Assembly (NCBI GenBank): GCA_002633005.1
Contig: NMRA01000454.1
Coordinates: 302,437 to 366,436 of the forward strand
Origin: Phoronis australis
Taxonomy: Eukaryota > Animalia > Phoronida
DNA: 64,000 nucleotides
Reading direction: 5' to 3'
The position numbers and the translations under genes were made by a program. The notes below the pieces were generated by a model. It was not told the origin of the DNA and made no database searches. It saw only the letters and a list, made by a program, of their open reading frames with translations. Positions 7,455-62,377 of this stretch are shown piece by piece (positions within the stretch are counted from its first letter, which is position 1; each line of letters opens with the position of its first letter).

Positions 7455-8221
7455 GTGAGACAACAATAAGCCATTTCGGGGTTAAATATCTGCAATTCTC
7501 ATGTTGAGCATGTATACAGTGGTGAGTATTCCAAAAGTATTACATAGTTACGTAACAAGAGTATATAAACGCCATCGCACTCAAAAAATAGTTATAATTT
7601 GACGGCATTTTATGGGCAGTGCCTCCATCAACTTCAGTTCCTGTTGCCACCCTTTTGACGCTGTGTAGGGTAAACAGTGAATACCAACGCATACTGTTTT
7701 ACTCAAATATTTACTTACCAGAGTTTTTGGCATACATTTACATGAACGCTAAGAAAATCGTAAGGGTTTGCAAACTGAAACATTTGGAATAGTAAAGACG
7801 TGTTTCACGCCGTCCAACTTGGGTAACACGATTATTTTGTATATAAATAATTTTAAAGTTTAGTTGCAAGAAAACACCTTTTCCAATATCATTAATCTGC
7901 CAGGGTTTGTTGGATATCATCGAAATAAAATGACTTTTAAGTGATATAATTTTGTGTTGTTAAAATCTTTTTAATGCTTAATTTCCTTGCATCTGTTTAT
8001 TTTAAATTCCAAATAAATTCCGCATTATGAGATTCATTTTTCGCCGGAGTTAGTTGAAACGACCTTTTGTCATTCCACACATATAGCGGATATGTGCAGC
8101 GATAATTGGTCTCCTTGAGCACATTCATTCAGTTCACACTTTCTTTCACATTCGCGTAAAAATTAGCTGTTACAAAACCCGTTTAGTTACTGTAACGTGA
8201 ATCGGTACGAGCAATTAAGTA

Positions 8222-10541: not shown

Positions 10542-11978
10542 AACCAGTCTGCACAATCAAGGACGCGTACGGCCCAAATTGTGACAAGAAATCGAACTGC
10601 CAAAGTAATTTCAATCGTTTGAGCGGGGAATGCAGCACGTGCAAGACTGGTTACTACGGGTTTGCGTGTGAGAACCAGTGCCACTGCAAGGGTAGTGCTG
10701 GGTGTTCGGGTGATGGAAATAGCTGCCCTTCCGGTTGCGACGCTGGCTGGTTTGGGTTTCACTGTGAAAAACCGTGTCACTGTTATAAGAAGGCACCTTG
10801 TGAGACAGGCAAATGTAAAACAGGGTGTGAGGCTGGATGGTGGGGTACTTCATGCGATCGACCCTGCAATTGTGAAGCCGGTGATTGTAACCAAATCACG
10901 GGTAACTGTAGTGGTGAATGTAAACCGGGGAAATTTGGATACAGTTGCGATCAACACTGTTTCTGCCCAAGTAATGGGAGATGCAATCGCAAGACAGGTA
11001 AATGCGCCGGTGGCGTGTGCCCACCCAAGAGGTTTGGTTACGGTTGTCAAAAACAGTGTCATTGCCTGCCCGGCAGTGAATGCATCAAGGGTCTCTGCGA
11101 GAAAGGATGCGAAAAGGGATGGAGTGGACCGTATTGTCAAAGTAAGTGCTATTGTCTAGACGGCAATTGCAACAGAGAGAAGTGTGGACAATGTTTGCCT
11201 GGGAGATTTGGACCACAATGTGAAACCAAATGTAGATGCGCCGGGAAGTGCAACGAGCTGACCAACGAATGCGAAAAGTGTCCCCCCGGGAGATGGGGAC
11301 TTGACTGTCAACGTGAGTGTCATTGTAGTTCTGCTGCTCCTTGCGCCAGGCTCAGCGGCAAATGCCCGGGTGAGTGCGAAGACAGGTATTTCGGGTACGC
11401 GTGCGATCAAAAATGTCAATGCAGGAACGGCGAAAAATGTGACCAGTTCACCGGTGAGTGTCTCAGTGGAGTCTGTAAGTATGGCTACTACGGTCTAGGT
11501 TGTCAGGATAAATGTAACTGCGCGCGACCATGTGACCAGAAGACGGGGCAGTGCAAAGACGGGTGTGTTTTCAGACGTTACGGCGACACTTGCAAGAACG
11601 AGAGTAACTGTTCAGGCCCTTTCGACCGCATCACCGGAAAGTGCACGACTGTGTGCCGACCTGGATGGTACGGATACAACTGCGCACAAAAGTGCAACTG
11701 TGACGAGGAAACTGTCGGCAATTGTCACGCGGTTACCGGGGAGTGTAGTAACGGTTGCCCACCAACCTACTACGGCTACAACTGCAAGAACCGCTGTCAC
11801 TGCCTTGACAATAATGGTCGCTGCCCACGAGACACGGGGGAGTGTAGCAAATGTTTGATCGGTTGGTTTGGGTCTCGCTGTGACAAGAGATGCCGCTGTG
11901 ACAAAGGCAAAGCCTGTCCTCAAGGAACATGCCCCGGTCCTTGTCAAGTGGGATGGAAAGGGAAGGACTGTTCAGAAC
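10542..11978 (+). CDS. Gene 1 large exon: ~16 EGF-like repeats
   Basis: acttcag| acceptor, C|gtaagt donor, 1437 nt; same repeat type. Confidence 0.95.
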
Positions 11979-12316
11979 GTAAGTCCCTTAGCTTTTAACC
12001 CTCGACATTATTCCGCGTATCGACCGAAACCGAAGGTGGAGGTCGATACACGGAATAATGTCTCGTGGGATATTATTTCATGTACGCCACTCTCGGTACG
12101 TTTTGTGCATATATTTGACATTTTCGTATAATGCACACAGGAACGTGTCATCGGTGTTACATTTTCAGCTTTGACAGAGGTGGCATGCGTTATTTGCTCA
12201 TAACACGGTTGTTATTATGTCAAATAAAAGCCGTACTAATTATTAGACGACAGTTTTAGATGTTACGCAGTGGTACATGCATCTTCGACCTGATGGCAAC
12301 TATTAAAACGTTTCAG

Positions 12317-18919: not shown

Positions 18920-20690
18920 TTCCTAAAACTAACCCCGCTATGAATGGCTGAGGCCCGCATCAGTAATAACGCCGCGTCTTTCAAGTTAGGCAGATCCAAA
19001 AGCCTCCAGCATAAATTCATAAATTTTCAAGCTTGTCTGCATTTCTTTCATAAAATCCGTCTACAAGGATCTTTGAATCAATATTTTAAATCTCATTAAG
19101 AACGAGCGCCAGATTAAGCTGCGACATTTTCAGGCACGTGATGAACTAATTTCTTTACCCACAGACTGGATTTGGAAAATTGAATCCCCAAAATAGGAAA
19201 ATTGTCTATTCAAATACGACGGGATTGGATAATGCGTGTGGCACGACTCTTTAAACAACATCTGACATTAGAAAAGCAGTGAATCCTCTAAACAGGACGG
19301 ATTTTATTGAATTGAATTGAAATTTGGAACTAAGATGAATTATCAAGCAACTTTGATTTTCGCTTAAAATTGGATTGAATTTATTAAGTGTAATAGCAAT
19401 TAAGAATCATGATTTAATTGATAATTAAATCAGATTCACGTAATAGCCATGGGTTCACCCCTGGGACCAGTGTTAGCTAATATTTTCATGTGCAATCTCG
19501 AGGCTGAGGCTCTGGCTAGTTGTCCATCGGATTGTAAACCACAATTTTACCGTAGGTATGTGGACGATACGTTTGTTGTGTTTTTGTCCAAGAGGTCAGT
19601 CAACACCTTTTTTAATCACATGAACAACATGTATCCGTCCATCAACTTCGCCATTGAACGTGAGCGCGAGTCGTGTTTACCTTTTCTAGATGTCTTGCTT
19701 TAACGTGAGAATACATGTAGCACCGTTGTTACAGTTTTACTGGGCTTTATCTTAAATTTGATAGTTTTGTGCCTATCCAGTACAAAAGAGGTCTAGTCAA
19801 TTGCTTGTTACACCGTGCCTGGAGAATCTGCTTCACCAATTTAAATTTTGATATTGACGTACATGTGTAGCTATGATTTTTCAGTTATTGCGTGCCAATG
19901 GTTACCCTCTGAGAGTTCTGAATATCTGTAAAAGGCACTTTCTTGCAAAAATGAATGAGGCGGATAAGGAGCTGTTATTGGACCCCAGAAAATGAGAGTT
20001 TTCTTTTCTCATGGTTACACTGTGCCAAGTAGTATAAAATGAAACGTCAATCACCTCGCCTTATTTATTGCATAGACACAGCAGTTGAACTGATAGTTGT
20101 TTTCAAACCCTTTCGGAAACTTTCCAATATGCTGTGTAAACTGAAGTCACCCATCCCGTTATTGAACAAGAGCAATGATGTGTATAAGGTTGGATGTGAC
20201 AACTGTAAGGAATTCTATATAGGACTCACACAGAGACGCCTCTGTGACAGGTTGAAAGAACATCACACCTCAGAGAAAAGTAACATATATAGACATTGTA
20301 TTAGCTACATGTACAATCACCAAGCCAACTCTTGTTAGTTTTATCTGCAGAGAAAACTAATAAGGAGTTAATGTACATCAAAGAGTCATTGGCCATTCAG
20401 AACCAGCATGCCACTGATCCTCTGAATAACATGCAGAGCTCAGTGACCCTGCAACTATGGTGATGACCAGATGCTGACTATATTCTATGTATCTCTCTCT
20501 TCACTCTATGGATGTTACCTGAGCTGTATGTTGGCAGTTGTTGTCCTAAATGGTTGTAAATATGATCATGATGATGTCTAATGAAAAGACGAAACGTTGA
20601 TTTGAAGATGATTTTTTTTATTTGTGCGGCGATCGTCCGGTTTTTAATGATTTAATTGTGTTATAAATAAATGCTGAATTTATTAAATAC
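18920..20690 (+). mobile_element. Degenerate Penelope-like retroelement (RT + GIY-YIG endonuclease)
   Basis: YEWLRPASVITPRL (~18938), AMGSPLGPVLANIFM, YRRYVDDTF, LPFLDVL (19449-19703), GIY-YIG VYKVGCDNCKEFYIGLTQRRLCDRLKEH (20180-20270); stops and frameshifts. Confidence 0.93.
20565..20602 (+). ncRNA. Minimal type-I hammerhead ribozyme-like motif at the PLE 3' end (C3 variant)
   Basis: ATC-ATGATGA-T-GTCT-aatgaaa-AGAC-GAAA-CGTT-GAT: stem II GTCT/AGAC, GAAA core, palindromic ACGT stem III, stem I ATC/GAT. Confidence 0.65.
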
Positions 20691-22467: not shown

Positions 22468-23870
22468 TTAATCTACGTTACAGCTTTGATAGTTTCCACG
22501 AAATCTAACACGGCCGTACGTACTCAATATCAGGTGCCGCAGAGGTGTTTTCAGCCTTTTTGGAGAACACCATATCAGACATAAAAATACGGACTGTTCC
22601 AGAGAGAGGTCAACAGCCGATCTACTGAAGTTCTTTTCTCGTACGTAGCACTGAGAAAGCACCGTTTTCCAGCACTTTACGTAATCTTGGGTCTGTAAAT
22701 TTCAACTTTTGGTAAAACAATGTTCCCCATCTGGCGTAGTTTGGGCGGTTCTGGGCAAAGTATACATCTAACATAGCAGGGGAAATGTTGATACAGCCAC
22801 TGACGTCATTGTTCTTGACGCATCTCTGGAGTTCTCTTTGGGCTCGGTTTACTATAAAGACGGAGATTGCCCAAAACTGATAAGTTTTGCCAAATTTGCC
22901 ATTAATCACTGGGTGAAATGAAGGTAGTTGGCGCGCATACATAACGCAGAAGACAGCAAAAGACGGCAAATTAGCAGTTGCATCAAATGACTCGTCCGAA
23001 AACAGAGGGACGCATCTTAGACTGGTAAAATAGGACAGCGAAAAATCGAAATTCGTGCAAACACAATGTGCTATTTAAAAGTGAATCATGTGGAGTATTC
23101 CGCTGTTTTCGCATGAACTTGTGAGGTCGCTGCTACACCAGGCGCGATGTTTCTGGTTTTCATGCCCTGACGTAAACTTGCGGACAAAAATCTTTCACAC
23201 TGTGTGGCAACCTATGTCGTACGGACTAGGTGGCTTATTAAAAATCGAAGTGCCTGGTTCCTCAATGTGATGCTTATTCATTGTGAATGGGCTTAGATGT
23301 ATAATCAATTTTGTTTCGACTCTTTATTTGTCTGATTGGGGCATCTTACTGTTATGCCCCGTGCATGTGATGTTGAACATCGGACGATTGGTTTCAAACG
23401 GTTACCTGGTGGGTTGATTTAGCTCAACTCAGGTACTTGGGCGTGTCTGGCGGGGATAACCCACCACTAGATTTGTCTGGCAGTGTCCATTCGTGATACA
23501 TGGGCTCACAGTGAATATTTTGAAACTGGTTTCACGCGGTTACCCCTTGGACTGATCTACATGTAGCTCAATGTTTGCACCTTGCTTATAACCGTCCGGC
23601 TGATACTCCCCACCACTGAAATTGTCTGGCAGTGACCAATTTTGATGCAGTGGATTACGTAGGAGGTAACCAAGGCGGTTTGAATTGGTTACCAGAAAAG
23701 TTGATCTAGCTCAATTTCTGAGTGTCATACTCTTGGCTCCCCCAAACACACCCACCAAACCGAACCGGCCAGACGGCCTTTCCCACCATTAGGATACCCC
23801 CAGAGCACTGTGGCACCAAAGAAAATTGGTTACCTTTTCATGCCCAAAAAAGCTCTGGGATCCCGATCTA
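22468..23870 (-). mobile_element. Academ (AcademX-type) transposon remnant
   Basis: QFWAI...RELQRCVKNND...MLDVYFAQNRPNYARWGTLF...GAFSVLRT-KNFSRSAVDLSLEQS transposase motifs; subterminal repeats 23395-23710; ends ...CCCGATCTA (TAG terminus). Confidence 0.75.
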
Positions 23871-26526: not shown

Positions 26527-26754
26527 TTAAAGTAATACATTTGCAGCAGTATGAATAACACTCCACATGCAACCAGATACCAGGCGTACATGTAACATCT
26601 CAGTCTCAAATCGGACGGTTGAGTGGCTCTCGCGGCAGTATTTATCAGTGTGTTGTGGTGCGAGATTTGGCGAGAGCGTCTTATTGCATTGTTAGTAGTC
26701 GGAGAGAATCGAGAACTTAGTGTCACATTTTGTCAATATAAATCAGTGCAACGG

Positions 26755-27772
26755 AGTATCCCAGGACGCTACTGTGTGCCGCTATGCGACATGGAAACAC
26801 GATAGCGGGCATGTCTTTCCGAAAGACAAAGAACTTCAGAAAAAATGGATCATCACCGTCAAGCAATTGGATTCGAACAACTCCCGTAAACTCTGGGAAA
26901 AGCGACCGCATGATTTTTTTACGGCCACTTTACAAAGGACGATTACAGAGCAGCGGAAATTATGGTTAGTAACTGTAAATCTTACGCAGATATTCTTAGT
27001 TTAAATATTTACCGGTAGCGAATGACCATCTGCGCATTTCCTGGTCCGAGATTTCGAGTACAGTGTCCCACAATACACATGTCGTCCTAACAATGATGAG
27101 GTTAGATTACCTGTTCGTCCGAGAACGCTGAAATTTTATCGGAATAAAAATGATATTTTCAAGTGATGTATTGTTTTTTTTTGCTAAAACTAGTATAGTA
27201 TAGATTAAGGCTATTGCAGACATTGAATTTCAGTTCTGAGTGATCACGATGGAATGGCCTTCTTGCACATCGAGTAGAATGAATTTACATACAAACAGTT
27301 ACGCCTGGATTACAGCTGTAACTAATAGTTAGCTCTGAACATTGGCAGCAGCCTCAGCCTACAAGCACGAACTCTGCATTTAAAAAGTATATATTAGCGC
27401 CAGGTTTCAGAATAACTGTATAATACTGTTTTTTACCAAAGTTCTTTAAGTCGAGTCAGTTCATCCCACATTGTTCTGTTTACTTTTAACTGTTTATGGC
27501 TTCACACATGGTTAAAAGATAGTTTACCCCCTGTCTACAATTTCACGTAACTGCCAAATCTTAGAACGCGAAAATGGGTTTGTTTTGGCAATTTTTCTCC
27601 TCAACTGATATGGGATCCTATGTTGAAAGTCCAAGATGAGATACTTAACATATGTTGTAACATATTTAGCTCAAAGAAGAAGACTGAAGCCAGGTGGTGT
27701 TCCCACCTTCTTAAAGAATCCAACTTCTGTATCAGCCAGATGTGAACGACTAGCTAAACGACAAAAAAGTTG
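26755..27772 (+). pseudogene. Degenerate two-exon THAP-domain gene of a DNA transposon
   Basis: CVPLC...HVFPKDKELQKKWI...HFTKDDY, then second exon QRRRLKPGGVPTF (AVPTIF-box-like); frameshifts. Confidence 0.7.
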
Positions 27773-33216: not shown

Positions 33217-33748
33217 GGGTTTTAGGCCGTATGAACTCGACCCACTTGCACGAGAAATGCCGCAGACTTGTGTGAACCACAACCAATTGAATCACGGAGT
33301 GGCCAATATTAAAGAAATAGACACTTAATAATCAATGACAAAATACTTTTATAACATGTAGAAAATCCACACACGCACCTTTTCTTGTCTGAAAAAGGCG
33401 ATTCTCTGCGGACTTTCCTCACATTTCCTCAGTATCGCATCAAAAACGGCGGAGAGACGGTCTTCCACTCTCTACTTACAACCACGATAACAACAAAATG
33501 CTTTCAAAATAATTTTGGCTTGTTTCTTAGCAACTGCTATGAAATCTCTTAAAAAGTACATGTATTACTAAAATTCTTTTTGAGTCACAGAGTCTTGGTA
33601 AGAACTATTGTAGGTCATGAACAGAAACCAGATTGTGACGTCATTATTTGGTAATTGCTACATGTAAGTTTCAACTCGTTTCAAGGTTTACTAATTGGTG
33701 GTCAACACCATGATTTAAGTACAATCCTGAGATCCCGGTACATTCCAG

Positions 33749-33889
33749 TGCATGCCTGTGAGCCCGGAAGATTTGGAGAAAACTGCAGCAAAATGTGCCA
33801 CTGTATTAACAACGAGACGTGCAACGAACACACAGGCCAGTGTAACGCAGGCTGCCACAAACGCTACACGGGTGACGCCTGCCAACAGC
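33749..33889 (+). CDS. Gene 2 exon: EGF-like module
   Basis: cattccag|...C|gtaagc, 141 nt; HACEPGRFGENCSKMCHCINNETCNEHTGQCNAGCHKRYTGDACQQ. Confidence 0.92.
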
Positions 33890-34466
33890 GTAAGCATGAC
33901 CTCACCATAATCCCAATAATTTTTNNNNNNNNNNNNNNNNNNNNNNNNNNNNNNNNNNNNNNNNNNNNNNNNNNNNNNNNNNNNNNNNNNNNNNNNNNNN
34001 NNNNNNNNNNNNNNNNNNNNNNNNNNNNNNNNNNNNNNNNNNNNNNNNNNNNNNNNNNNNNNNNNNNNNNNNNNNNNNNNNNNNNNNNNNNNNNNNNNNN
34101 NNNNNNNNNNNNNNNNNNNNNNNNNNNNNNNNNNNNNNNNNNNNNNNNNNNNNNNNNNNNNNNNNNNNNNNNNNNNNNNNNNNNNNNNNNNNNNNNNNNN
34201 NNNNNNNNNNNNNNNNNNNNNNNNNNNNNNNNNNNNNNNNNNNNNNNNNNNNNNNNNNNNNNNNNNNNNNNNNNNNNNNNNNNNNNNNNNNNNNNNNNNN
34301 NNNNNNNNNNNNNNNNNNNNNNNNNNNNNNNNNNNNNNNNNNNNNNNNNNNNNNNNNNNNNNNNNNNNNNNNNNNNNNNNNNNNNNNNNNNNNNNNNNNN
34401 NNNNNNNNNNNNNNNNNNNNNNNNNNNNNNNNNNNNNNNNNNNNNNNNNNNNNNNNNNNNNNNNNN

Positions 34467-34620: not shown

Positions 34621-34695
34621 TTGATGTCTCTTCCTTTCTCCTGGAACTCGCGACTTCCTTTCCGCTCTCTATCTAACCTAAAGCTGTTATTCCAG

Positions 34696-34836
34696 CTATC
34701 CAGTGCCCACTCAAGGACACGTTCGGATTGGAATGTAACAAAACGTGTCACTGTGTTGAAGGTGGAAAGTGCCATCCCATCACAGGCAATTGCACTTCCG
34801 GTTGCATGGAAGGTTGGGAAGGGGATGGTTGTCAAG
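34696..34836 (+). CDS. Gene 2 exon: EGF-like module
   Basis: tattccag|...G|gtgagc, 141 nt; IQCPLKDTFGLECNKTCHCVEGGKCHPITGNCTSGCMEGWEGDGCQ. Confidence 0.92.
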
Positions 34837-35229
34837 GTGAGCGTTTGGTTAAAAGTACAAATAACGCTAACTGTGCAATAACATTCTTCTTCATCAATCC
34901 AAGCTTTAGTTTCTTTCTGCCGCGACATCCCGAGTAAATTCTCATAACATCTACATGTAGTTCCATACATTAAAGCATTCCTCGTTTTACTTAAACAATA
35001 TAGCAATCGCCGAGCTTAGTATGTCTCGGATTCTCAACCGATGCTCATGGTTTTCAGTCAATACCGAAGACGACGAAACGGGCCAGTTGGGTAAGTTTAC
35101 GTTACAACTCACTGCTTATGACGCATATTCACGAACGTAGGCAAAAGTCGCCTCACAAACCTTGCTAAAGCAGTCACTTGTGCGCCAAGAGTTCAACCTG
35201 GACTCGGACGGTTTGATCTCCCAATTTGA

Positions 35230-35702: not shown

Positions 35703-36885
35703 TTGTGTTGTTAATTGCCATTCTACTTTAAACGGGGATCAAGAGGTGTGTCTATGAATGAGTGGTCAAGTTATGAAAGAGGCAAGGGACGCGAAAACTA
35801 GTCAAAATATCTTCTTAAACAACTACTGACGAAATTACAAAGCCGCAACGTCTACTGCAGCGTTGTGCACTTTTCCATATGGTGGAATTTCGAGAAATTA
35901 TCATCAAATTTACAGTTTTTGAAATACGCGCTAAAGAAAACTCTGTAGTCACCACAGAGATTCTAATCTCGCTCCCACAAATGCGCGCACGCGCTCACAA
36001 TCATTCGCGAAGCATCTGACTGACAAGATGGAAATAAATGTCAGATTATGATATGTGATTACACTGCGAATCTTATGTCGACATTACAGTACGAGGCAAG
36101 CAAATAAACCAAGCAATCTCCCGAAATAAGAATTCCAAGCGAATTTCCAAATCTATTAGAATATTACTGTACATCAATCATTAAATTTAAACACAACTTA
36201 CATCAACTGCTTTTAAATTTATCTGGCTGCTGGTTGACGTCAAAGGTTAAAGGTAACAATTTCCATACACGTGGTGATGCGTCTATGTCTTGCCTTGCCA
36301 AGTAACAAAAAGTGGTTTGCCCCATGTGTCCGAGAAATCGACAAAATGACTAGGACTTGACAGATCGATTTTATTTTTGAAATTTGAAATTAAAGAAAAA
36401 ACTTTGACATCAACAGTATTTCATTTTTACGAGCAAACTGTAAGAACCTTATATATATATATTTATATATACATGTATATATGGGGTGGAGGATCTCAAA
36501 TCACTACGATGGCCTTGTCTATTGTATAGATCAAATATTTTTTTCGACAGAGGCGTTTTTGACATTGTTTATTACTTTGAAAATAAATGTGGTCATGTGA
36601 ATATCGTGTCGAGTAGACAGTTTGGGCAGGGAACTACTTTGACCAATGTAACTTAGCCTGTCTTTCGCATTCCATGCCTATTTAGGATAGACTACAGTGA
36701 GTTTCTACTCCATTATCGCACTTGATAAGATTAAAGTAGGGCCGGGTGTGAATACGTTTGCTACCAAAACATTTTCCAGAAAAAAAAACGCTATAGGCCT
36801 ACTGCTCTCTTCTACGTCTTTGTCTATACATCAAGTGTTGTAGTACGTCTATTTAATAATCTTCAATAGCAAAAATTTATTCCAG

Positions 36886-37172
36886 TCTCAGACGAAACTG
36901 CTGTCTCAAAGGACGATCTGCTTATATTGTTAGCCGCTGGTTTACCCGCCGTGTTTATCATCATTGTCGCTATCATAGTGTGCACGTGCTGTCGTAAGAA
37001 ACCACAGTCGCTCGCACCGCCGAGCGACAACATAGCAATGAGCTCTCACATGACGGAAGAGTCAGTTGCAGACGTTCAGTCCGCCATGACGGAGGAATCC
37101 GAAGAGTCGATGACAGCGTCGTCTGCGTCCAGTTTCACGAGTTCGATGACCGGCTTTAGCTCATCATACTAA
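36886..37172 (+). CDS. Gene 2 terminal exon: TM helix and Ser/Met/Glu-rich tail
   Basis: tattccag| phase 1; LLILLAAGLPAVFIIIVAIIVCTCC-RKK, tail ...SSHMTEES...SAMTEESEESMT...SSSY*. Confidence 0.88.
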
Positions 37173-40100
37173 AACGGGTATCTTAAATGTAAATTCGTGA
37201 AACTACAATAAGGAGTGGGGCGTTCTTTTAGGCCAGCGGAGTATGATGCTTTTTGTTTTTTAAGTGTGCGATTTCCGTTGAAGTGTCGTACCTAGCACCA
37301 CTTTACTGTGCATCTCCTATAATTTATCAAAATCGCCATCGTCAAAATGTATGGTGAAGTCGACTCTGTTCTGACACGAACAGGAAAAGTCGACTCTGTT
37401 CTGACACGAACAGGAACGCTCTGCACGGCATGAGACGGGCATAACACAAATGAGCTTGCGAGTTGAAAACCGGAAGACCTTATTACACAAGTAATTCGAG
37501 AAGTATTGCTGAGGTGATGGAAATTACAGAGAGCTAAAAGAAATTCGTGATTTCCATCATGTATGGATAGCAGTTGCGTGGATTATGTGTTCATCAACCG
37601 ATTTCACGAACGTGTAGTCTAGTCTAAATGGCCCGCTGGATGTCGCTGTCCACCCAATTTTGGCATTTACTTACAGGTGGATTTCGTCGTGGCTAAGTTG
37701 TCATTGTTGTTTTCTTAACCAAATCGCTTGAGGGTTTAAAAGTAACTGTCTGGGAAATGCATGCAATACCGAAAACACATGTCTTTGGAATTACTTGTAA
37801 CTTGTAACACATTCTTAGTATAGAAATGGACACTCCCCAAAATATCGGTTTATTCCAGAAAATGCTATGGTCTTTCATTTTCAGCTAAATTTGGCAGGTC
37901 TGGCGTCATCTGTATGAGGTATTTTTCAAATAAAGATTGTAAAAAGTAATCCATATCCTGCTAAAGCATGCCTTCAACAGCACTCAAAAATCAAAAATAA
38001 CAGATCGTGTCAAAGGTTTCAATTTGAATGTTTGGACTGGGTAACCGCTGGTGTTCACAGGTCGTACAGAATTAAACAGATTAAGGACGCAATATCTGCC
38101 AATGCCGAAAATCATCAGATAGGAGACATATACGGTTTTATCCTCCAATGACTTACAAGAAACGCAGCCGCCGTTGTGTGAGTAATTCCGCTACCTCGTG
38201 CCGTAAAGGTTCTTCAAACACACTCTTTGTTCAAAGTCGGCACTGTAGGCCGCCACTGTTCTGTTATTACTAAAATAGTAGATTTTATAGTGCATTTTGT
38301 ACTGCGTACAGTTGTCACTGCTATAAACCTTGTTATCAATCGTACACTTAACAATCAACTGTGAATTGGCCACGCTAGGACCACAAAGAAGATTACTTCC
38401 TATCACAGCCGCTAGGGGGCGCTGACTTCTAAAGCATAAATGACAGGGGCTTAAACGACGGGCAACGGGCCTGTTTGGTAAGAAATTCGCTCTCACGTTC
38501 CACACAATTATTTCCGAAACATACTTACATGTAAATCACACTGAGAAGTGCCAGCGTAAGACTGAATTTCTGTCCTACGTGTAGGTCATCAGTCACTATG
38601 AAATTAAACTCTGGTCAAATGGGCAGCTCAACATTATTTTGTACCTGAAGTGAGTTATCCTGAAATAAAATTGTAAATTGTCGAATTCATGACTTTATAG
38701 AGTGTCATATTTCAGGGCAAACAAGATTGATAATGTTCTGATAGTTTGTAGCAAGTGAATGGTGCCAACTGAAGGTGTGGGCAATAAATAATGTCTCATA
38801 CTTTTACGAAAATGTCTTCAACAAGAACACCAAACAACTTCAAATACGCATGCGCTCCTCGAAGTCCAACATACACCAACACTGAAAGGACAGGGCATAG
38901 GAAAACATCAGGTGTCCGTATACTACCACTGGGTTAGGCATTATTGTTGTGATAATGAACGCGAGTATGGTTACATCAGCAATGTGAAGTATTTTCCACT
39001 TGTTAGGGATTCGCTATTGAACTAACACGTATTTGAAAAGCGAGGCACGAGAAAGGTCAAAACAAAATTTTGCATATGTCAGATTACTGGCACTAATGCA
39101 GCGTGACTGAACTTCTTAACATGACATGTATGTCTCATTAAATTATCAATACGCAAATGAAGTACAACTTTACAAACAACCTCGGTGTGCCGGAAACAAT
39201 CCGAGATCCAATTACAACTTCGTGAAAGTCTCGTTCTGCGAAAATATTTTTATGTAAATGAGTATGGTAATAGGTCATTGTTGACCCTAATGAAACAAGG
39301 CTTATTGTTATTGCTTGTTCACTGATTTCACTATCAACGAACGATTCGGTAATATTTGGAATTACTGGGGTTTTCTATATGTTCGCACTTGTTTTTCAGT
39401 GCATCATTTGTTATGTTGTCTTGAAAACCGCAATTTATTTACAAATTGTTTCTATTCCTGATTATACTTGTACATAGGATTCTCCAAAAATTCACAAAGT
39501 GGCACGTGCTGCAAATTTAAATATTCGCGGTTTTATTTATCTTTAAACTGATACTTGCACGCCAGTTCCATATCTCTATGTGACTGCCTGATCAAGTTAC
39601 ATGTAGTTAAAAACACAACATATACTGGCGACATGAAAGTAGGTCATTAGTGAAAAGGTCATCTATTTGCAGATTTTTTTTTGTTTCCAATACAAGTTGT
39701 AAATGAATACAACTGCTCTTTGTTCAGCTGAGATGATGTTCGAACAACATTGTCGTTTAGTTCCAGCTATACATAAGCATAGTTAGGAGCATGCAAATAC
39801 ATGTTTAAAGTCGACGCAAAAAGTCCTCATGGTCCAATGAAGCCTCGACCGATTTGCAATGTTCACGTATTTACTTTTGAGGGGCATCATAGATTATAGA
39901 CAACAGATTCGCAACTCCGGCATATTCTTACGAGCTGAGTTGAACTCTCCTGACCTATCTGCTGCAGTTTCCGGTCAGTGTAATTTGACGAGAAATACTT
40001 GCATCTACTTTATTGTCCAAAACAGCGAAAAAACATTAATTTATATTAATTTCGGTATTGAAACGCTTTTCAAAGTCTTTCAATAGTAGAAGTGTTGGTA

Positions 40101-40284
40101 TTGTGAGTACTTTTGCCAATGCTACTGGTAATTAATTTCAAAATTCAAACTTCGGTTCCGACCCTTTATGTCGTCTGCTTGCCCAATAGCAGCATAGTTA
40201 TCGGACAGTTTTTGATTTACGGTTCACATAGGCCTACTGAGAAAACTACGAAAGCGTGTTGATAAATCAACATTCTCAAGTGAG

Positions 40285-40324
40285 CAGTTCTTCTGGGAAG
40301 TGTTGAGTGGCCCTTAAAAGGGCC
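40285..40324 (-). terminator. Histone-type 3' stem-loop 2 (GGCCCT-TTTA-AGGGCC) with ACTCA and an HDE-like element
   Basis: Minus strand CCAAC-GGCCCTTTTAAGGGCC-ACTCA-acacttcc-CAGAAGAACTG; stem at 40309-40324, purine-rich element ~14 nt downstream. Confidence 0.88.
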
Positions 40325-40349
40325 GTTGGTTGTAGGTATAGCGTGAAAT

Positions 40350-40365
40350 GGTTCTTAAAAGAACC
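40350..40365 (-). terminator. Histone-type 3' stem-loop 1 (GGTTCT-TTTA-AGAACC)
   Basis: Minus strand AAC-GGTTCTTTTAAGAACC-ATTTCA, 10 nt after the stop codon; 6-bp stem and UUUA loop match the Histone3 consensus. Confidence 0.85.
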
Positions 40366-40375
40366 GTTGAATAAT

Positions 40376-40692
40376 TCAACATAAATCACACAGTATACCA
40401 TGCTCACTCAAGTACTGAAGGTCCTCTTCATTCAAGTTTTCATCTGGGAAGGTTGGATGAAAACAGAGGAGATGACAATATCGATGACAGTTGTAACACC
40501 TTAGATAGATATTACCGTTCACCAACGTTGTCACGAACCCTGCATCGTTCAGTTCTTGTTCCTGTATCCACAAATAATCCTGAACTGTAGGAAAAAATGA
40601 CAAACAACACAACGAATCAAATTTCGAAAATCATCGCCTTCGTGCGATTCCGTGTTGCTGTCACCAGACTGATGTTCTTCTCCAACGTCCAT
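40376..40692 (-). CDS. Intronless ~105-aa acidic-N-terminus PHD-finger-like (C4HC3) protein, with one frameshift in a T6 run
   Basis: MDVGEEHQSGDSNTESHEGDDFRNLIRCVVCHF / FPTVQDYLW...YLRCYNCHRYCHLLCF...ILCDLC*: C-x2-C...C-x2-C-x4-H-x2-C...C-x2-C. Confidence 0.7.
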
Positions 40693-41188
40693 CGTAAAAA
40701 ATCGACGTTGCAAGTGATGGAAACTTGTCTACGCTCTCGTCCTTTGTTTCTAACCTTTAACCCATTTTTTAATAAAGGGGTGTACTGTTTTTGTCTCATG
40801 TTGATAGTGCATAATCTATGGTTTTACAATGTATTAATCGTGTTAAATGCATATATATGAACTGGTCTCATTGAGGTGCACAGCAAATAAATTAACTATA
40901 ACAAATTAAAGTTTTGAAAATATAAAGAGCAGTAACAGACTCCCTAAAAATCAGGCTTGTTTTCGAAAGGTTTGCGCCATTGGTGATCCGATTAGTTCAA
41001 TCGCTTGCGGCGGGAAAATGATAGACCCAGTTATTGTGCGCGTGTACACTGTATCAATGCTTTGTATCTTATTCTTATTTGTCTAATCTGTTGATACAGT
41101 AAATTTCCTTATTTATGCCCATCCTGATTTAACCCCGACTTGAGCTCCTTGGGTTCTACCATATTGGGGCTGTCCAGGGACTCACGTG

Positions 41189-41327
41189 CATGCGCGCACC
41201 CAGTCTTCAAAATGGGGGGCTCGAATTCCTGACGTTATGGACCTGTTGTTAACAAGAGAGCGGGCAGACTTTTTTGCCCACTTCGCCAAGGGGGGGGGCT
41301 CGAACCCCCCCTCTGAGTGCGCGCATG
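41189..41327. mobile_element. MITE family A, 5-bp TSD ACGTG
   Basis: CATGCGCGCACCCAG...CTGAGTGCGCGCATG flanked by ACGTG. Confidence 0.9.
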
Positions 41328-41606
41328 ACGTGGTGCTTACTCGAATGAGTTTCATTTTAGCGGCTATTTCCAATTGTGTAGGTGAAGTAAATTAACAAAG
41401 TGGATGATTATCATCACCGGTATTTCATCATTAGTATTTTTGTCGGCCTCTCAAGTTTTCCGTGGCTAGGGATTGTCACATCTGTAAGGTAGACGTGTTT
41501 CAGTGAACCTCCATGTTTGTGGCGTTATTTATACCTGACCAAACTTTGAAAAAGAAGCCCGCGTTTAAACCAGGAGCTGCATTGGGTGCAATTTGTGTAG
41601 ACGTTT

Positions 41607-41763
41607 CATGCGCGCACCCAGCCTCTAATACGGGGGCTCGAATCTCTGGCAAAGTGGACCTTTTGCTAACAAAAAGCGTGAGAACTAAAATAAAAAACGG
41701 GGTGCTGCCGTATTGTGGACTTTCGTCTCTTTCTCTTGGACTTTTCCCCTGGGTGCGCGCATG
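41607..41763. mobile_element. MITE family A, 5-bp TSD CGTTT
   Basis: CATGCGCGCACCCAG...CTGGGTGCGCGCATG flanked by CGTTT. Confidence 0.9.
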
Positions 41764-42061
41764 CGTTTGTCTACGTTGCTAGTTTTTATAAAGGTGGGCC
41801 TGTCTGTAGCCAACTACGGTAAATTCATAAAAGGTCACGTGCAGTGCAACTCAAGTTCATTACAAATTAAAAATCCGAACTTTCAAACCGTTTGATCTGA
41901 GTTGACATCTCAAATCAAAATTATGAAAATGCCACATAAAAGTATGAAATTGAAAATTAGCACACGTCAGCTTCACGTCCCTACCACCCCCTTTATCTTG
42001 CTTGCTACCTCTTAGGGTTCATTTCCCTTGCTTCCGAGGTTTTTCGTTATTCTGGTATTTT

Positions 42062-42882
42062 CATAGACTGCAGCGTACTTGGCTAAGATGGTTCAAGTTT
42101 TGTGCGGCATACAGTCGACATAAATAATTGAGTATGTAACCTGCTGTTGAATTGCGGGATAGATTTTGACAGGTCCAGGTATTTATTTCTGAAGTATTAA
42201 TGTAATCTTTATTTATGTTAAAGGTTTTACTAGCGTCCTATTTATTTGTACACGAATGTGAATTTGTTGAAATCGCTGATCCAAATCCTGGCCAAATCTG
42301 CGCATTATGCTGAGACCAACCGTCTGATCAGGGCCACCGAAGAGTAATTTGGTTAATTCGCTCACTAGACTATGGCTGAAGGTCCTCGTAAGGACAAGAG
42401 TTCACCAGTCTCTACCATTGGAAGAAATTTAGCGGACATTTTTCGACAAAAGTTTACCAGACAGTTTTCATCAAAACGGAGAAAAGAAAAATGGATTTGT
42501 GAAGACAGGATTAAGTAGTAGGCCTACCAGAGCCTCTTAAAAACATCCATCTTCGAAGTGACGTGAACAAATGTACAAGTTTTTTTTTGGAAGAACAACT
42601 TCCATTCACGTCGACGCGAGAACATAACTTTTTCTCCCACAGCGGATTTTTGGGTCTCCGTACACTGTGGAAGCTAACGCCTCTGCATTTCGCCTGCGTA
42701 GCCGAACAACCGGCCACACAGCAGCCGACCATGATTAGCAGACGACGTACTTGCCGGAAATTACACCAGATAATTTAGCCAGGTGTCGCCAGTGAATAAT
42801 GACGTAAGGGCTTGTGCGCAAGCTCACAGATTTAGTCCATTGAAAGTATACGGAGTTGGCGGTCCATGTACTATAGTCTATG
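42062..42882 (-). mobile_element. THAP-bearing P-like DNA transposon derivative
   Basis: Imperfect CATAGACT...AGTCTATG ends; MVGCCVAGCS...VSFH...W...ICSRHFEDGCF THAP (42520-42732, frameshifted); no TSD seen. Confidence 0.65.
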
Positions 42883-43221
42883 GGGGCATGCGTTTTTTTC
42901 AGGAAGTAACTCGGCGAGATATTTTACGACTCGCTCAATGGCCTGCTGACACGGGAACATCCGGATAAACAAAAAAATTCGCAACATTTGTGATGAAGTC
43001 AGTTTTTCAATTAGAAAAGTTCATTCATGGCAAAGACACTGAATACCCAAGTATTGAATTTCTAAGTAAATGTCCGTAGGTTCGGTTGACTACTCATCTT
43101 TCGAAGTAACTGCTATGCCATGTTAGTAGACGGCTACATGTAACTATTTTCTACACACACAGACACAGCTGGTAGCCATTAGTTTAAGAGAATCAAAATT
43201 AATAAACCGAATTGTCCTTCA

Positions 43222-44815
43222 TAGGCCATGGGCTGTAGGCCACGGGAGGCTAAGAAAACCACTTCTGTGACTACTTTAGGGGGGAAATTTAATTCAGGTA
43301 TTTTTGATGTCACAAATCATTGTACTTTATGAATCAAAAAGTTCCCGCGTTTAAACTTGCACATTTTTGTGAAATTTGATGTTAAAATTATGCCAATTCA
43401 GCAAATTCTACATGGAATTAAAAAGTTAGAAAAGAAGAAAATTAAGTTCCATAAAGGATGATACTGCATAATATATTCCTACAGGCTGTATTAAGTTATA
43501 ATAAACACACACTTTGTTATATTTTTCAATTAAAATGAAGAATTATGGAAGAAATATGAATTCATGGGTGCCACCTGTTGGCGAAATATGGAACTACCAT
43601 TCAGTGTTTCATGCTGTTCTTACTATTGGTAAAACTATAATTGTCAAACTGACTTTATCTCACCTTTATTTTATCACGCATTTACTGATCTGTCACACAA
43701 AAACAATCATTGTTACAAGTACAAAGCAAACAATTTGTCAAAAAATGGATACAAAAAGTATACAATGACAACAAATGCAATCGGATGAAGTACAAAATTC
43801 CGAGAATATAACAAGATACAAAGCTATTACTAGAGACGTACATATGACCATAGAAAAATGTTTCACAAATCACCAGACTCACTGGTTTATGTCTCTTGAG
43901 AAGGTTTCTTCCAAGTTTCTCTGGCTGGGATGCAAGTCCATCACACCTTTACTCGTCATCTGACTCAATTTCATCGCTCACTTTGACGTTCTTACAGTTT
44001 TGGCAGTTGCACATTTCTGTCAGTGCATTTTAGTCCAACATTTACACAAGAACAAATGTTTGTTTAACTACAATTCACTATGATTCCGTTTTGATTAAGG
44101 AATTGTAGAATAGGGTAAATTCTCTGGTAATTCGATTTCAGATTTCCAGTTCGGACACATACATTACAACCTCTTTTGGGCAAAGTTTTCTAGAGGAGTG
44201 ACTTTAACAGAGTCAAATGCAACATTTCCCCTTGCGAGATTATTCGTTGCGTCATAAATTCAAAGAAAAACTCTTGAAATAGTCTGTGAAAATTTCACTG
44301 CTTTCACTATCGTCATATTTTTGTTTTGTCAGTTTTCTTGTGAAGCTTTTGTAGCAAGAACGATGGTATTGCCAGCTGGTGCTTATTACTGTCATCATCT
44401 CCTATCGAAAGACATTCTTTCACACAGTCAATTCTTTTTGCCCATGTCAGTTTCCAGAAACTCAACAGATCCGATGAACTTGCTGCTCGAAAGTGTATGC
44501 AGCATTCATTGACAGCATCTTCAAGGGAGCCGCCATGTAAGATTAGGTCTGCAGTTACTTAGTTTCTGAGCTTGTGATTGGCTTAAGATGCCATATTGTT
44601 GCACCTTTTGTTGGACTTAGCGCCACCTCTTGTTCAATAATGTAGCACTTGAACTCTCAAAAGTATACGTTTTTCTACAAAAATGTGCAACTTATAACAT
44701 GGGAACTTTTCAGGTGTCAGTTGCTTGATGGTATATCTAGCCACACAGAAAAAATCAAGTTGCCCCCTGACATGGTCACATGATGAAAAGACGGGAGCTA
44801 CGGCCCATGGCCTTA
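43222..44815 (-). mobile_element. Internally deleted Academ transposon with both TIRs
   Basis: TIRs TAGGCCATGGGCTGTAG / CTACGGCCCATGGCCTTA, 3-bp TSD TCA; N-terminal CCIH...YHRSCYKSFT and C-terminal Cys-rich CSCVNVGLKCT.MCNCQNCKN remnants. Confidence 0.8.
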
Positions 44816-47800
44816 TCATTAACATGATGACGAAACCACGTGGTTACTCAGTCATCGGGTATTTTTGTTCACGTATTTGAAACTGCAAATCGGCAAGATA
44901 AGCCCTGACGGCGTATGCGTCATACCCCATCATACTGGCAATAGAGACAACTGAAAACACGCAAAGAACCGTCTATATTTTCGTTATAACGATATACTAT
45001 CTCATTATAATGACAATGCTCTCTCGTTATAATATTCTGTGATTATACATGTATCTCGTAAAAATGAGATAATCTGCGATTTTGTTTCAGTTGTCCCTAA
45101 TGGTCCGTCGTATTTGTCACAAGTATCCTGTCCTGAGCTGTTCTTCAATAAGCCGAAGTGAATGCATCGTTTTCACATTCACCCTTTTATGGTTGGACAA
45201 ATGATCTAAAGTAGCTGTTAAAATACCCAAAGCTCTTCTGTACGTGGGTATCTTAGCCGCACCACGTAAGTGCGCGTTGTTCTTACTCGAGTCGTGACAG
45301 GTGCTTGTGACTAATTGGACTATCCGCGTATCAACTGGGCTCATCTCAGATTCATTTATTTAAAGTGAACAACTAAAAATATGGCACGACTGTCTAGAAT
45401 TTAACATGATACAGACTAGAATCAACTAAGCCACTTTTGGCTCAATTAGATATTTCCAAAAATAGCGCATGATCCATTAGAATAGGATTTGTTGAACAAA
45501 CGTTCAGCACCACCTATTGTTCGATGTGTGGGCACATTTACAGCAGTCGCATTTTACTTAGCTTATCTTATGTGGTCATTATGACATCACTGCGTCACCT
45601 ACATGGCTGCTTTTGGTTTGTTTGAATGACTGACACGTAGCGAGCTATAGAGGCTAACAATTTTTTTAGCGTTCCGAAGCACGCTTCAAAGTTTTGCCAC
45701 TTGGCCCGTCACTGTATATAGAAACGGAAATTTTAAAGCGCCCTGACAGCACCCCCCTGCTAAACGATGGTGAACACTACATTACCTCTTTTTATCCAAA
45801 TCTATATTATTTGGCTCAGTTCCAAACGTGTTTCTCAGGTAACACGCGATCCTTGCACGTTAAACGCAAATAGTTTCTGAGTTATCGATTCTCTAAATCG
45901 ATATGGCTTCGTTTAAATCACATACAACGAACTGGGAAGTGAATAATCACAAATCAGTTTATAACCGACGAATTTTGATTGAACACGGTCTACAATTGCC
46001 AGAAAGGTTTTTGTTTTTTAATTGCAAAGCCGTGTTTAACGTGTGTTTTACATGTAATTTGAAACACACGTTGATATCAATGGTTTTGGTTACGTCACAG
46101 TTGTGCACACTTTATGGTAATGTATGTAAATTCAATCTATGTAGTACTAATTTAGCATGAATAATTGATAATTTCTTTCGTTAAGAATGTTTACTCGAGC
46201 TGTTAAACATTTCGTAGGAATGTGACGACAGCAGTCAAGGCAGTGATAATGTTATTCGAGGTTTGCTTTTGAATTCGAGGAATATTACCGAGGTTTGCAC
46301 TCTGTTTTCAAATATCAGGATCTGGTTGAAAGATTGCGGATAACTTGTCGGTAGCCTGTTCCTGTCATTGAGCGGTGAGTCGCACTATGCCACCTATTGG
46401 TGAGAATTTAACATACACCTACGTCAATATTCATAGCTCACAGTGTGCATTTAGAGTTCGTTCATATGCTGCCCCAGCTAAAAATGAAACGAAAAAAAAA
46501 TCTACGGCACTTGACGTAGTCATCACCAATTGCACGTGCGCGCAGTAATAAAGGAATAGCTAAAATACCCTGACTACCGACCGTAAAGCCTGCGATTTTA
46601 ATATATTGTTATATGACTGGACAATTTAAACGAAAAACGGGAAAGTTAAGTATTGGGAACTCCAGTTTAAAGACACTATAGTGTACCTCTTGCAGGCTCA
46701 TCAATGTTAATTTGACGAGACAAAATGTTGAAGGTTATTAAATTTGGGACTACAATAAATAGTCATCGATTATTTATTGGATAGTTTTACTTACTGTCTC
46801 ATTTTTTAGATTACATCCATCGGACTCACGAATAGTAAACAGTTTGCTTTAAATACTCTATTCATTTCTACTTACGCTCATTGAAACCTCTGACCTCATT
46901 ACGTAATGAGATGAAACATCGTTCGCAGTTTCAATTGCAATGGAAACAATATAAGTAGCCTTTATAATTTTAATGTAAAACTGTACATTTCACTCTCGTC
47001 GTTCTGCGCACCCAGTGACATCGTACACCCAGTGACATCATATAAGGTAGTTGTTGTTTCGGATAAAACAACCCCTTAACGAGTTTACTGCTGGGCACCC
47101 AATTCCTTTTCGCTATCTTCGATCTGCATCGTACTCGCTAAACTTAATTAAAATCATCGAATATTACCCTGATTATTGTCCCTTCTCGGCTTTAATTAAG
47201 TCATACTTCCGTGTTCAGGAAACGATAGCTCGGAGCCAAAGCTATGGCAAGATACACTTGCAATGCACGTGTAGAATTTACACGGATTGTTGACTTCGTG
47301 TTTTCCCAAAGCAGAAGTTCGGCGAAGTATAAATTTCTGGACGTATCAAATCGTAATCAGCATTGCCGTCGCACTTGTATGAGACTAAGTCTTGCATTTT
47401 CACCTCGTGCATGGGTTGATAGTCTCATCATGAATATTACTGTGCGCTACTCACAAACTCGTTTGCTTTTGTTTTCAATAATTCATTTAAAGTGAAAATT
47501 TCAAAAGACTTTAAGTGTGTAATCCTATATCCACTTCACGTGAATGAATGGTATTGACTGAATATTCTACGGCAGCATGGCAATGATTGAAATGCGCAAA
47601 ACAGTCGGTTCAGCGAGCTCGGGAGAACGGGTGAGTTAGCTCATTTGGGTATTATTAACTTTCTATGCTGACAGAAAGTCAATGGTTGACAAAATATGCC
47701 CACGTCACAGGTGACGGCGCTTTGCTTTTATTATACATAGTGTACCTTGAAGTATAGAGATAATTAATTGCAAAAAAGTGCTGTCACTAACAGAAAGAAA

Positions 47801-49639
47801 AATTAAACAGCATCGCTCATAGGTTTATCATCTTGGCTACTTTTAAAATTTCAGACTCAGGAATGTCTATTTTGATGTCAGTTGGCAAAACATCTCTTCT
47901 ATTTTAAACTGTCAATGTCCGAACGCGATCAAGAACGTACGATAAAATTTCTTCGATATCGTAATGGCGTCCATGAGTTCTGAAATTGTAACTCGACACT
48001 ACGAACATCCTCCTGAGTATGGCGGCAGTTGTATGGTTAAGATTATGTTGAACGGTCAACATTTCCCTAACGCGTTCTCTTTTCTTGGAAAATTGTCAAA
48101 ATGTAAACCAATCGTATGCCATGTTGCGCGTGCGAGCATTTTTCCGTGCATTTGGTTCAGACTGTGAAAAATACTGATGAGACGAAGATTGTAAAGTTTC
48201 CACTGATCATCGCTAAAAACATAATCAAAAGGGTAACAGAAGCGTTCACAACTCAGTGGCGGATTTAAGGTGAAGGAAGCAAAGATGTCATGGTTCCCCT
48301 TAAATTTCAACAAGTCCTCTGGGAATCGACTTGTTTGGTTCTTGTAGTGTAGGAAGCAACTAGTTTTCGTTCATTATACACATTCACGCGTTGTTTAACA
48401 TTGTCAAATAAACACGTTTTAAAGAAGTTGACTCCACTTCTATAATAGCTCGAGACCTCCAGGCCCGGCTTAACGTAAATTCCTGGACGCACAACGGTAT
48501 GTGTTGAACTTTCCTTGATTGACAGTGAATGGATCAAAGCAGAAAAGTGTTCTTTAGGCCTCACGTACATAACATGTTATGACATGATGCATGCATGACT
48601 AACGTTTGCACAAATCCGCGACATGAGATAGGTAAAATAGAAAATGGCGTTTTACTTATGTTTTAGCACAGGCGCTTGGGTTTATCGCAAATGACGTCAC
48701 TCTATAATATATATAAGAAAATATAAAGGTTGGACANAAAACATCTCTTCTATTTTAAACTGTCAATGTCCGAACGCGATCAAGAACGTACGATAAAATT
48801 TCTTCGATATCGTAATGGCGTCCATGAGTTCTGAAATTGTAACTCGACACTACAAACATCCTCCTCCTGAGTATGGCGGCAGTTGTATGGTTAAGATTAT
48901 GTTGAACGGTCAACATTTCCCTAACGCGTTCTCTTTTCTTGGAAAATTGTCAAAATGTAAACCAATCGTATGCCATGTTGCGCGTGCGAGCATTTTTCCG
49001 TGCATTTGGTTCAGACTGTGAAAAATACTGATGAGACGAAGATTGTAAAGTTTCCACTGATCATCGCTAAAAACATAATCAAAAGGATAACAGAAGCGTT
49101 CACAACTCAGTGGCGGATTTAGGGTGAAGGAAGCAAAGATGTCATGGTTCCCCTTAAATTTCAACAAGTCCTCTGGGAATCGACTTATTTGGTTCTTGTA
49201 GTGTAGGAAGCAACTAGTTTTCGTTCATTATACACATTCACGCGTTGTTTAACATTGTCAAATAAACACGTTTTAAAGAAGTTGACTCCACCTCTATAAT
49301 TGCTCGAGACCTTCAGGCCCGGCTTAACGTAAATTCCTGGACGCGCAACGGTATGTGTTGAACTTCCCTTGATTGACAGTGAATGGATCAAAGCAGAAAA
49401 GTGTTCTTTAGGCCTCACGTACATAACATGTTATGACATGATGCGTGCATGACTAACGTTTGCACAAATCCGCGACATGAGATAGGTAAAATAGAAAATG
49501 GCGTTTTACTTATGTTTTAGTTGGAACCATCCGCGGCACAATGTTTTCCATTTTCCTCAATAAATTTGGTTGACGTACATGTGCATGGCTAGGTTATGAG
49601 GTTAGCGTTTAATCCATCATTATCGTATTGTCATAAGCA

Positions 49640-61394: not shown

Positions 61395-62377
61395 AAGGAT
61401 AATGTTGAAAAAGACATGCAGTTTTGAAGAGAGACGCGGCGGGGTGCATGGAGTGCAAAATGTTATGCTATAGTTTGTTTAACCCGCACGAGGGCGTGTG
61501 TTGAAGATGGTCTCGTCAGTCGTTTAACTCGTCTAGGCAACATGCTCGCACCCAGGGCGCCCCATTTGGCGGTATGGGCAAAAATGTCCGCCTCGAAGAA
61601 ACGAAAAGTCCAAAAAAGTAGAAAACGAGACAAAGGTCCACTAAAAATACGGGAACAACTCATTGCTGTGAACGTACACGCTTTTTAGTAAAAGATCCAC
61701 ATTCTCAGAAATTAGAGCCCTCGACTTTTTAGGCTGGGTGCGCGAATTGGCAATAGGAAAGCGCTGATTATTTAACTTGCACCAAAGCAAGTGCTAAAGT
61801 CTCAAAATGGAACATGTCCACTCAGCACATGTATAGTTGAGCAAAAGGTACTGTTTAGCAATAGTCCCAGGCTCTCCCGGATAACGTTGAAAAATGCATG
61901 CACGTTTGAAGAGAAACGTGGTGGTGTGAACAGAGTGCAACATGTTATATTATAGTGAGTTGAAGATGGTGTCGTTAGTCGTTTAACACGCCACAAGCAA
62001 CATGCGCGCACCCAGGGCCTCCCATTTGGCGGAATGAGCAAAAATGTCCGTCTCAGAGAAACAAAAAGTCCGAAAAGTAGAAAACGAGACAAAAGTCCAC
62101 CAAAAAGGCAGGAACTACCAAAATTCGGCGAATGCACAATTAATAGCTCTGAACGTACTCGTTTTTTAAGTAAAAGGTCCACTTTCTCAAAAATTCGAAC
62201 TCCCCCATTTTAAGGCTGAATGCACGCATGGGCAATAGGAAAGCGCTGATTTTTAACCTGCACCCAACCAGGCGCACACCCTAAAGTCCCAACTAGAACC
62301 AACTACACCCTGTCATGAGTTCACTTTAGTGTGGTTGAGCAAAAGATAGTGTTCTGCAAAAGTTCCAGGCTCTCCCG
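61395..62377. repeat. Old ~490-bp tandem duplication; each copy contains a family A MITE (61541-61749, 62001-62230)
   Basis: Shared GTTGAAGATGGT.TCGT.AGTCGTTTAAC, GGCAATAGGAAAGCGCTGAT and AGGCTCTCCCG anchors with substantial divergence. Confidence 0.8.

Follow-up and report, generated by a model that had tools for sequence, protein, structure and literature searches.

A small PHD-like gene is followed by two histone-type hairpins

The window, i.e., the whole 64-kb stretch of DNA analysed here, carries on its minus strand a small PHD-like (C4HC3) gene of ~105 aa (40376..40692, ATG at 40692), frameshifted in this copy, whose TGA stop codon (40378-40376) is followed on the same strand by two hairpins and a purine-rich tract. 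The proximal hairpin, hairpin 1 (40350..40365), comprises a histone-type 6-bp stem and a 4-nt loop and lies 10 nt 3' of the stop. A 25-nt gap separates it from the distal hairpin 2 (40309..40324), a canonical histone stem-loop flanked by CCAAC (5') and ACTCA (3'), with its stem 51 nt past the stop and cleavage predicted after 40304. The HDE-like purine tract CAGAAGAACTG (40285..40295), which includes AAGA, lies 13 nt past the stem of hairpin 2. The ORF, its stop, both hairpins, the two flanks and the tract are all situated where an earlier note on this DNA had placed them.

According to passages of a source on histone mRNAs, the stop codon and the 26-nt stem-loop element are 25-60 nt apart, cleavage occurs five nt past the stem-loop, and a G-C at pair 2 together with a U at loop position 3 is diagnostic for the stem-loop (10.64898/2026.10.14.759114). 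Both hairpins possess the diagnostic G-C and U, and both are perfect, with pair probabilities of 0.70-0.81 in hairpin 1 and 0.85-1.0 in hairpin 2. Hairpin 1 lies nearer to the stop than the histone range and has no purine tract 3' of its stem; only hairpin 2 combines canonical spacing with a tract. In the 64 kb, hairpin 2 is also the sole Rfam match at gathering score (Histone3, 36 bits, E 8.3e-07, cut-off 34 bits), and hairpin 1 scores 22.8 bits against the same family (E 0.0037), under the cut-off. The earlier observation of two histone-type stem-loops plus an HDE-like element is confirmed, with the qualification that profile score, canonical spacing and tract come together in hairpin 2 only.

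The hairpin arrangement is real and well beyond chance: among 300 dinucleotide shuffles of the window, one such hairpin appeared in 2 and two appeared in none, as opposed to the two in the real window. Between hairpins 1 and 2, stem pairs 3 and 4 have both bases changed, the compensatory differences described earlier, and such changes, which keep pairing in both stems, suggest that both hairpins were kept over time. Upstream of the gene, a possible promoter (40768..40983, minus strand), assigned by motif match alone, contains CCAAT at 291 nt, TATATA at 165 nt and an AT-rich box at 84 nt from the PHD ATG.

The gene encodes a PHD-like protein

The window's own PHD copy is a frameshifted relic. 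Its 1-nt frameshift lies in a T-run at ~40591, in agreement with the earlier note, and the near-identical database protein P0001 reads in frame across this break. Programmed frameshifting at the T-run was considered and rejected, since other copies are simply in frame. The N-terminus is acidic, with 8 D/E and zero K/R within the first 22 residues, and all eight C4HC3 zinc ligands are found across the two window pieces. The homologue P0003 (110 aa), 42% identical over 73 aa, retains every ligand and passes Pfam PHD_NSD (PF22908) with 27.7 bits against a cut-off of 23.9. A PHD-like protein, as proposed earlier, is supported by the ligands and by P0003; the window piece itself matches Pfam PHD weakly (E 0.077, below the cut-off).

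A profile search of 1.84 billion proteins returned 6 matches, five of which are relatives, down to 32% identity to P0003; the sixth, P0006 (694 aa), is repetitive, has no matching cysteines and was dropped as chance. Both P0001 and P0003 start with Met at the acidic stretch, as called by machine. Among the Atlas neighbours of P0003, 9 of the 10 rows listed are PHD clusters at 0.84-0.88, a result at the level of a lead. Structure models of the protein are poor (pLDDT 57-60), and Foldseek with these models gave no matches at E 0.001 or better in the PDB and viral libraries. Sequence search of the PDB returned weak rows alone, among them 1wev_A, which we take to be a PHD domain, at E 0.067 and 0.19; a match to picornavirus VP3 at E 0.02 was rejected as chance.

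Searches of other sequence collections yielded no further homologues. Against viral contigs, P0001 gave 12 candidate stretches with no true relative among them (one, L001, lies inside an unrelated long ORF, with a cysteine-free matched part, and was judged chance), P0003 gave 0 of 4 and P0002 no candidates. L002, one of 196 metagenome-contig candidates, is a cysteine-rich repeat protein and was likewise judged chance. Neither search of prokaryote genomes gave a match (0 of 114 and 0 of 68 candidates), and the double-hairpin pattern was found 0 times in viral contigs.

A P-like non-autonomous transposon carries the gene

Contig ends and depth delimit a whole non-autonomous DNA transposon of 2,995 bp (39888..42882, minus strand), or 2,418 bp without a nested MITE. 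The element is bordered by an exact 7-bp target-site duplication, ATGCCCC, at 42883..42889 on its 5' side and at 39881..39887 on its 3' side (both minus strand); among lengths of 4-10, the two sides match at 7 alone, as seen in the window copy only. Comparison of the ends identifies a 5' terminal inverted repeat that starts with CATAGA (42851..42882, minus strand) and a 3' terminal inverted repeat (39888..39919, plus strand). These 32-bp inverted ends are imperfect, matching at 11 of the first 12 bases and at 22 of 32 overall, a number of matches reached by 71 of 500,000 random pairs. Hairpin 2 lies 421 nt inside the 3' end of the element.

Near its other end, the element contains a frameshifted THAP zinc-finger remnant (42540..42732, minus strand) with its ATG at 42732, 150 nt inside the 5' end. 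The remnant is made up of two consecutive pieces that match Pfam THAP at positions 1-43 and 49-60 with E 0.031 and E 0.027, respectively, neither of them reaching the curated cut-off, and an indel at 42579-42580 varies between copies. Neither of 2 candidate longer THAP relatives scored. The 92 reading-frame segments of the element (at least 22 aa each) contain no transposase catalytic domain and no histone family, and a P-type DDE transposase is absent from the window copy. In line with the earlier statement that histone coding sequence is lacking, histone peptide motifs are also absent from the six frames of the window, by a crude test.

P superfamily termini read CA...TG. Passages on this superfamily describe ~31-bp inverted ends, 7-8 bp target duplications and a THAP domain (PMC3698922). 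ISL2EU elements, according to passages of another source, have THAP too, but 2-bp AT duplications and GG ends (PMC4482050), which do not fit the element. According to passages on Repbase, non-autonomous elements are assigned there by their ends and duplications (PMC4455052). By its anatomy the carrier is best described as a P-superfamily-like, non-autonomous derivative of a cut-and-paste transposon; it is filed as P-like and not as a proven member because the window copy has no transposase.

Polintons and adintoviruses possess polymerase, integrase or capsid genes, and AcademHP a helicase and an Academ transposase. The 3-kb element contains none of these, and the viral contigs yielded no true relative; nothing points to these groups, which the earlier note had named among the options. 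The broader suggestion of a mobile element or an endogenous virus is borne out in its first half, by ends, duplication and repetition; an endogenous virus as carrier was rejected, as there are no viral genes and the anatomy is that of inverted repeats and a target-site duplication.

The nested MITE (41188..41764) belongs to another family and has 577 bp with 16-bp perfect inverted ends. It contains internal repeats, and related pieces lie at 3344-3409, 61677-61747 and 62162-62230. Directly left of the transposon, another highly repeated element occupies 39068-39808, with its junction at 39808 in 90 contigs of DNA run X3 and 34 of X4. To the right, a less repeated, decayed element (43337-44941, X3 depth ~160-600) has cysteine-rich coding remnants and 34-bp inverted arms at 43337-43370 and 44677-44710. 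The transposon lies ~2.7 kb behind the last of a series of plus-strand exons (6152-7504, 10490-11995, 33655-33920, 34677-34937 and 36870-37172) that encode many cysteine-rich EGF-like repeats and, in a transmembrane exon, a short tail; they resemble receptors of the MEGF10/Draper type. Elsewhere in the window are a transposase-like fragment with a weak DUF6589 match (22625-23074, minus strand, E 0.053), an exact 30-bp tandem duplication (37357-37416) and a pair of almost identical open frames of 104 codons, spaced 854 bp apart (48059-48370 and 48913-49224, minus strand), a local tandem duplication. By eye, from their motifs, we take 26699-27001 (plus strand) to be a second THAP-like fragment and 20033-20335 (plus strand) to be a GIY-YIG-like fragment of a Penelope-type element.

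The element is highly repeated and its close copies link the ORF to the hairpins

Contigs of four public DNA runs were placed on 38000-46000; X8 placed none, which is no proof of absence. The element is highly repeated, at more than 100 times flank depth and with many different junctions: X3 depth is 620-5,084 in bins over the element versus ~6 in the unique flanks, values that are not a copy number. Loose ends with varied flanks were found at 39888 in 23 contigs (X4) and at 42882/42883 in 97 and 94 contigs (X3) and 21 (X4), counts that include short derivatives. In such derivatives, internal deletion joins 42714-42882 to 39888-40114 (depth 108 in X4), and neither the PHD gene nor the hairpins are left.

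The PHD frame is open in most of the family depth. An extra base at ~40591 restores the frame in 438.5 of 530.6 depth in X3, and in 20 of 98 reads and 6 of 14 reads in the RNA runs X11 and X13, respectively; in 12 of 95 X11 reads the extra base is at 40589 instead. Variation was examined in 40 listed variant rows out of 397, a tool-selected subset whose sites are not independent and mostly mark two subfamilies. Among these 40, 21 fall within the ORF and none in either stem or the purine tract. Of the ORF rows, 7 below 10% of X3 depth were excluded (2 of these 7 are synonymous) and 14 common ones kept. The common differences are synonymous in 10 of 14 cases, against an expected 19-27%, and lie at third positions in 11 of 14 (p 4e-5 to 7e-4, values that are optimistic in view of that selection of rows and of the subfamily structure). 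Such an excess of synonymous change indicates selection on the PHD protein, and the sequence comparisons taken together support the view of a PHD-like protein with signs of selection.

In close copies the link between the ORF and the hairpins is shown directly. A 296-nt contig of X5, from another study, covers 40267-40562 with the ORF, both hairpins and the purine tract; its 6 differences fall, by the variant rows, 5 in the ORF, 1 in the spacer and 0 in the stems. This contig demonstrates linkage and not constraint, since 6 differences spread over 296 nt would be expected to put less than one in the stems. Another contig, labelled organism B, extends over 40257-40383 at a depth of ~2 and differs at 2 places; it may come from a relative, or may be the same animal's DNA. 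The hairpins are part of the repeated element, and a histone pseudogene fragment unique to the window copy was rejected because they are joined to the ORF in other copies.

Some copies depart from this arrangement. An 87%-identical X4 copy can be aligned only as far as 40368, immediately ahead of hairpin 1, so the hairpins may be missing or changed in divergent copies. Between the hairpins, at 40333-40334, there are breaks in five contigs of X3 and one of X5, and one contig of X3 passes over 40297-40353 and may represent a single-hairpin form.

RNA reads cover the locus on both strands

X11 and X13, two runs of raw RNA reads that carry the same species label, were searched at 18-19% of each run, their selection type being unspecified. 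On 40150-41050, X11 placed 521 of 12.75 million records and X13 57 of 11.05 million, on both strands. No RNA ends pile up at 40304 in X11 or X13, runs with few reads here, of unspecified library type and with no histone-gene control, and X11 depth continues beyond 40304. No splice joints were listed over 40150-41050 in either run. According to passages of a planarian study, stem-loop histone RNAs are depleted in oligo-dT libraries (PMC10954484), and a non-polyadenylated RNA would be depleted there in the same way.

In X11, A>G is seen at 111 places and T>C at 94, versus 12 and 10 in DNA run X3, an excess that suggests editing of read-through double-stranded RNA, the DNA being that of other individual(s). 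First mates on the plus strand show a modest excess over the ORF in X11 (46-80 versus 23-28 just downstream) and are confined in X13 to 40243-40676, plus a few above 40925. A short sense transcript would be consistent with this pattern, provided that the libraries are stranded in the usual way; the pattern could instead reflect divergent copies aligning over the coding part alone. Collectively, the RNA data neither demonstrate nor rule out histone-type processing.

At 40677-40686, the loose-end consensus of X11, X5 and X3 reveals by eye a divergent subfamily with ATT in place of the window's ATG, which makes up 4-16% of DNA depth versus ~43% of X11 reads there. At 40693, 29 of 67 X11 reads and 41 of 958 X3 depth are one base short (by eye), and this loss would join an open upstream frame (40756-40693) to the PHD frame, again by eye. 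The ATT subfamily and the missing upstream base together imply that PHD could end a longer element protein in some copies.

Discussion

Overall, we lean towards the reading that a PHD-like gene in a P-like non-autonomous transposon has its message ended the histone way. A PHD gene that ends in a histone-type hairpin suggests that the histone pathway is likely used by the element for ending its message and possibly also for timing it. In the mechanism that we propose, the distal hairpin would be the binding site of SLBP and the purine tract that of U7 snRNP, a cut near 40304 would yield a message without a poly(A) tail, and the proximal hairpin would offer SLBP a second site without being a place of cleavage. 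Judged by the signals themselves, such processing of the PHD message by SLBP and U7 is moderately probable.

This would lead the RNA to accumulate in S phase, in oocytes and in cleavage embryos, times at which cut-and-paste elements acquire additional copies through repair off the sister chromatid. The PHD protein, for its part, would read a histone tail, helping the transposase to reach chromatin or to avoid silencing; we only infer this link to transposition because no catalytic transposase was found. That S-phase, oocyte and embryo timing and histone-tail reading jointly operate for the element's benefit seems to us doubtful. Somewhat more credible, and still tentative, is a P-like lineage with an accessory chromatin reader whose mRNA would be a true non-histone client of SLBP and U7, with its activity tied to S phase and to the oocyte or early embryo, escaping poly(A)-based control and detection.

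The alternative that fares best, which we consider unlikely, is passive cargo: a PHD piece together with a histone-gene 3' flank, or a host gene already having one, would have been captured and amplified, leaving idle hairpins that look conserved since the expansion is recent. The excess of synonymous change among copies argues against it, as do the canonical spacing of hairpin 2 from this ORF's own stop, the double changes that keep pairing in both stems and the lack of a histone coding remnant in the 92 segments. On the other side, it accommodates the missing RNA end at 40304, the divergent X4 copy that stops aligning at 40368, and the short derivatives without the PHD region (e.g., the joint of 40114 to 42714, depth 108 in X4), which imply that an element can do without the cargo in cis. 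In non-autonomous elements, selection on a protein that acts in trans is weak.

Less probable again is a PHD that forms the last domain or exon of a longer THAP-transposase-PHD protein, its middle deleted, so that the histone-type end would be that of a transposase message. THAP and PHD do lie on the same strand, and the ATT subfamily at 40677-40686, with the base loss at 40693 that joins the upstream frame, points the same way. However, P0001 and P0003 both have their first Met at the acidic stretch, P0003 having only 110 aa (both machine gene calls); none of 216 candidates of 166-2000 aa scored as a longer form of the protein, which is weak evidence; no splice joints were listed over 40150-41050; and a deletion of 10 bp at 40729 is frequent (411 of 1,482 depth).

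Very improbable is a role as mere transcription terminator or decay signal, by which read-through would be limited and the element silenced, timing bringing no benefit: the position of the signal 421 nt inside the 3' end and the feeding of stem-loop histone RNAs into piRNA production in planarian stem cells, described in passages of PMC10954484, would suit it, but the ORF shows selection on its protein and RNA depth runs on beyond the site.

Comparison with known systems

The preferred reading, a transposon gene whose message ends the histone way, can be set against four known systems. Among PHD fingers (PF00628; NSD-like PF22908), the protein shares the C4HC3 spacing and differs in being stand-alone at ~105-110 aa and in having an acidic head and a helical insert of 34 residues that follows the first CxxC; the window copy has nothing past the last CxxC. 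PHD is known on transposons from AcademHP, and PHD domains occur in LINE ORF1 or MULEs. Like the present element, AcademHP, LINE ORF1, MULE and Copia readers place a chromatin-reading module on a mobile element, but they belong to other superfamilies, and we know of no transposon-borne chromatin reader with a histone-type mRNA end. The Copia case concerns an arthropod family that has captured a methyl-CpG-binding domain (PMC6673714).

With the P superfamily (P element, 1360/Hoppel, Galileo; derivatives such as BuT5), the element has in common the ~31-bp inverted ends, the 7-8 bp duplication and, by its putative remnant, THAP, as given in passages of PMC3698922; it differs in that the window copy is without a catalytic domain and has a PHD gene and histone 3' signals in addition. 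Neither a PHD gene nor histone 3' signals on P-superfamily elements were met in the literature passages or searches. A full-text literature search, judged by title and abstract opening and covering few subscription papers and no Repbase Reports, gave no report of a transposon or non-histone gene with a histone stem-loop. The arrangement is real and apparently undescribed.

Passages of PMC4604434 state that no non-polyadenylated cellular mRNAs apart from histone mRNAs are known and that pull-down in human cells found no real non-histone SLBP target, and passages of PMC5011920 regard the stem-loop plus HDE as the hallmark of replication-dependent histone genes, in a cnidarian too. If its message is processed, a selected transposon protein gene with the full signal would be a natural exception to this histone-only rule; if the reading is true, it would also offer a straightforward way of coordinating transposon functions with DNA replication, and such RNAs would be depleted in oligo-dT transcriptomes and hence overlooked. 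The closest comparison is with the replication-dependent histone genes themselves, which share with the PHD gene a short, apparently intronless ORF, a canonical stem-loop at its distance, a purine tract and CCAAT- and TATA-like boxes, whereas the PHD gene encodes no histone, sits in a transposon and has a second, proximal hairpin. By analogy, its 3' end would work like that of a replication-dependent histone gene, yet the gene is not one.
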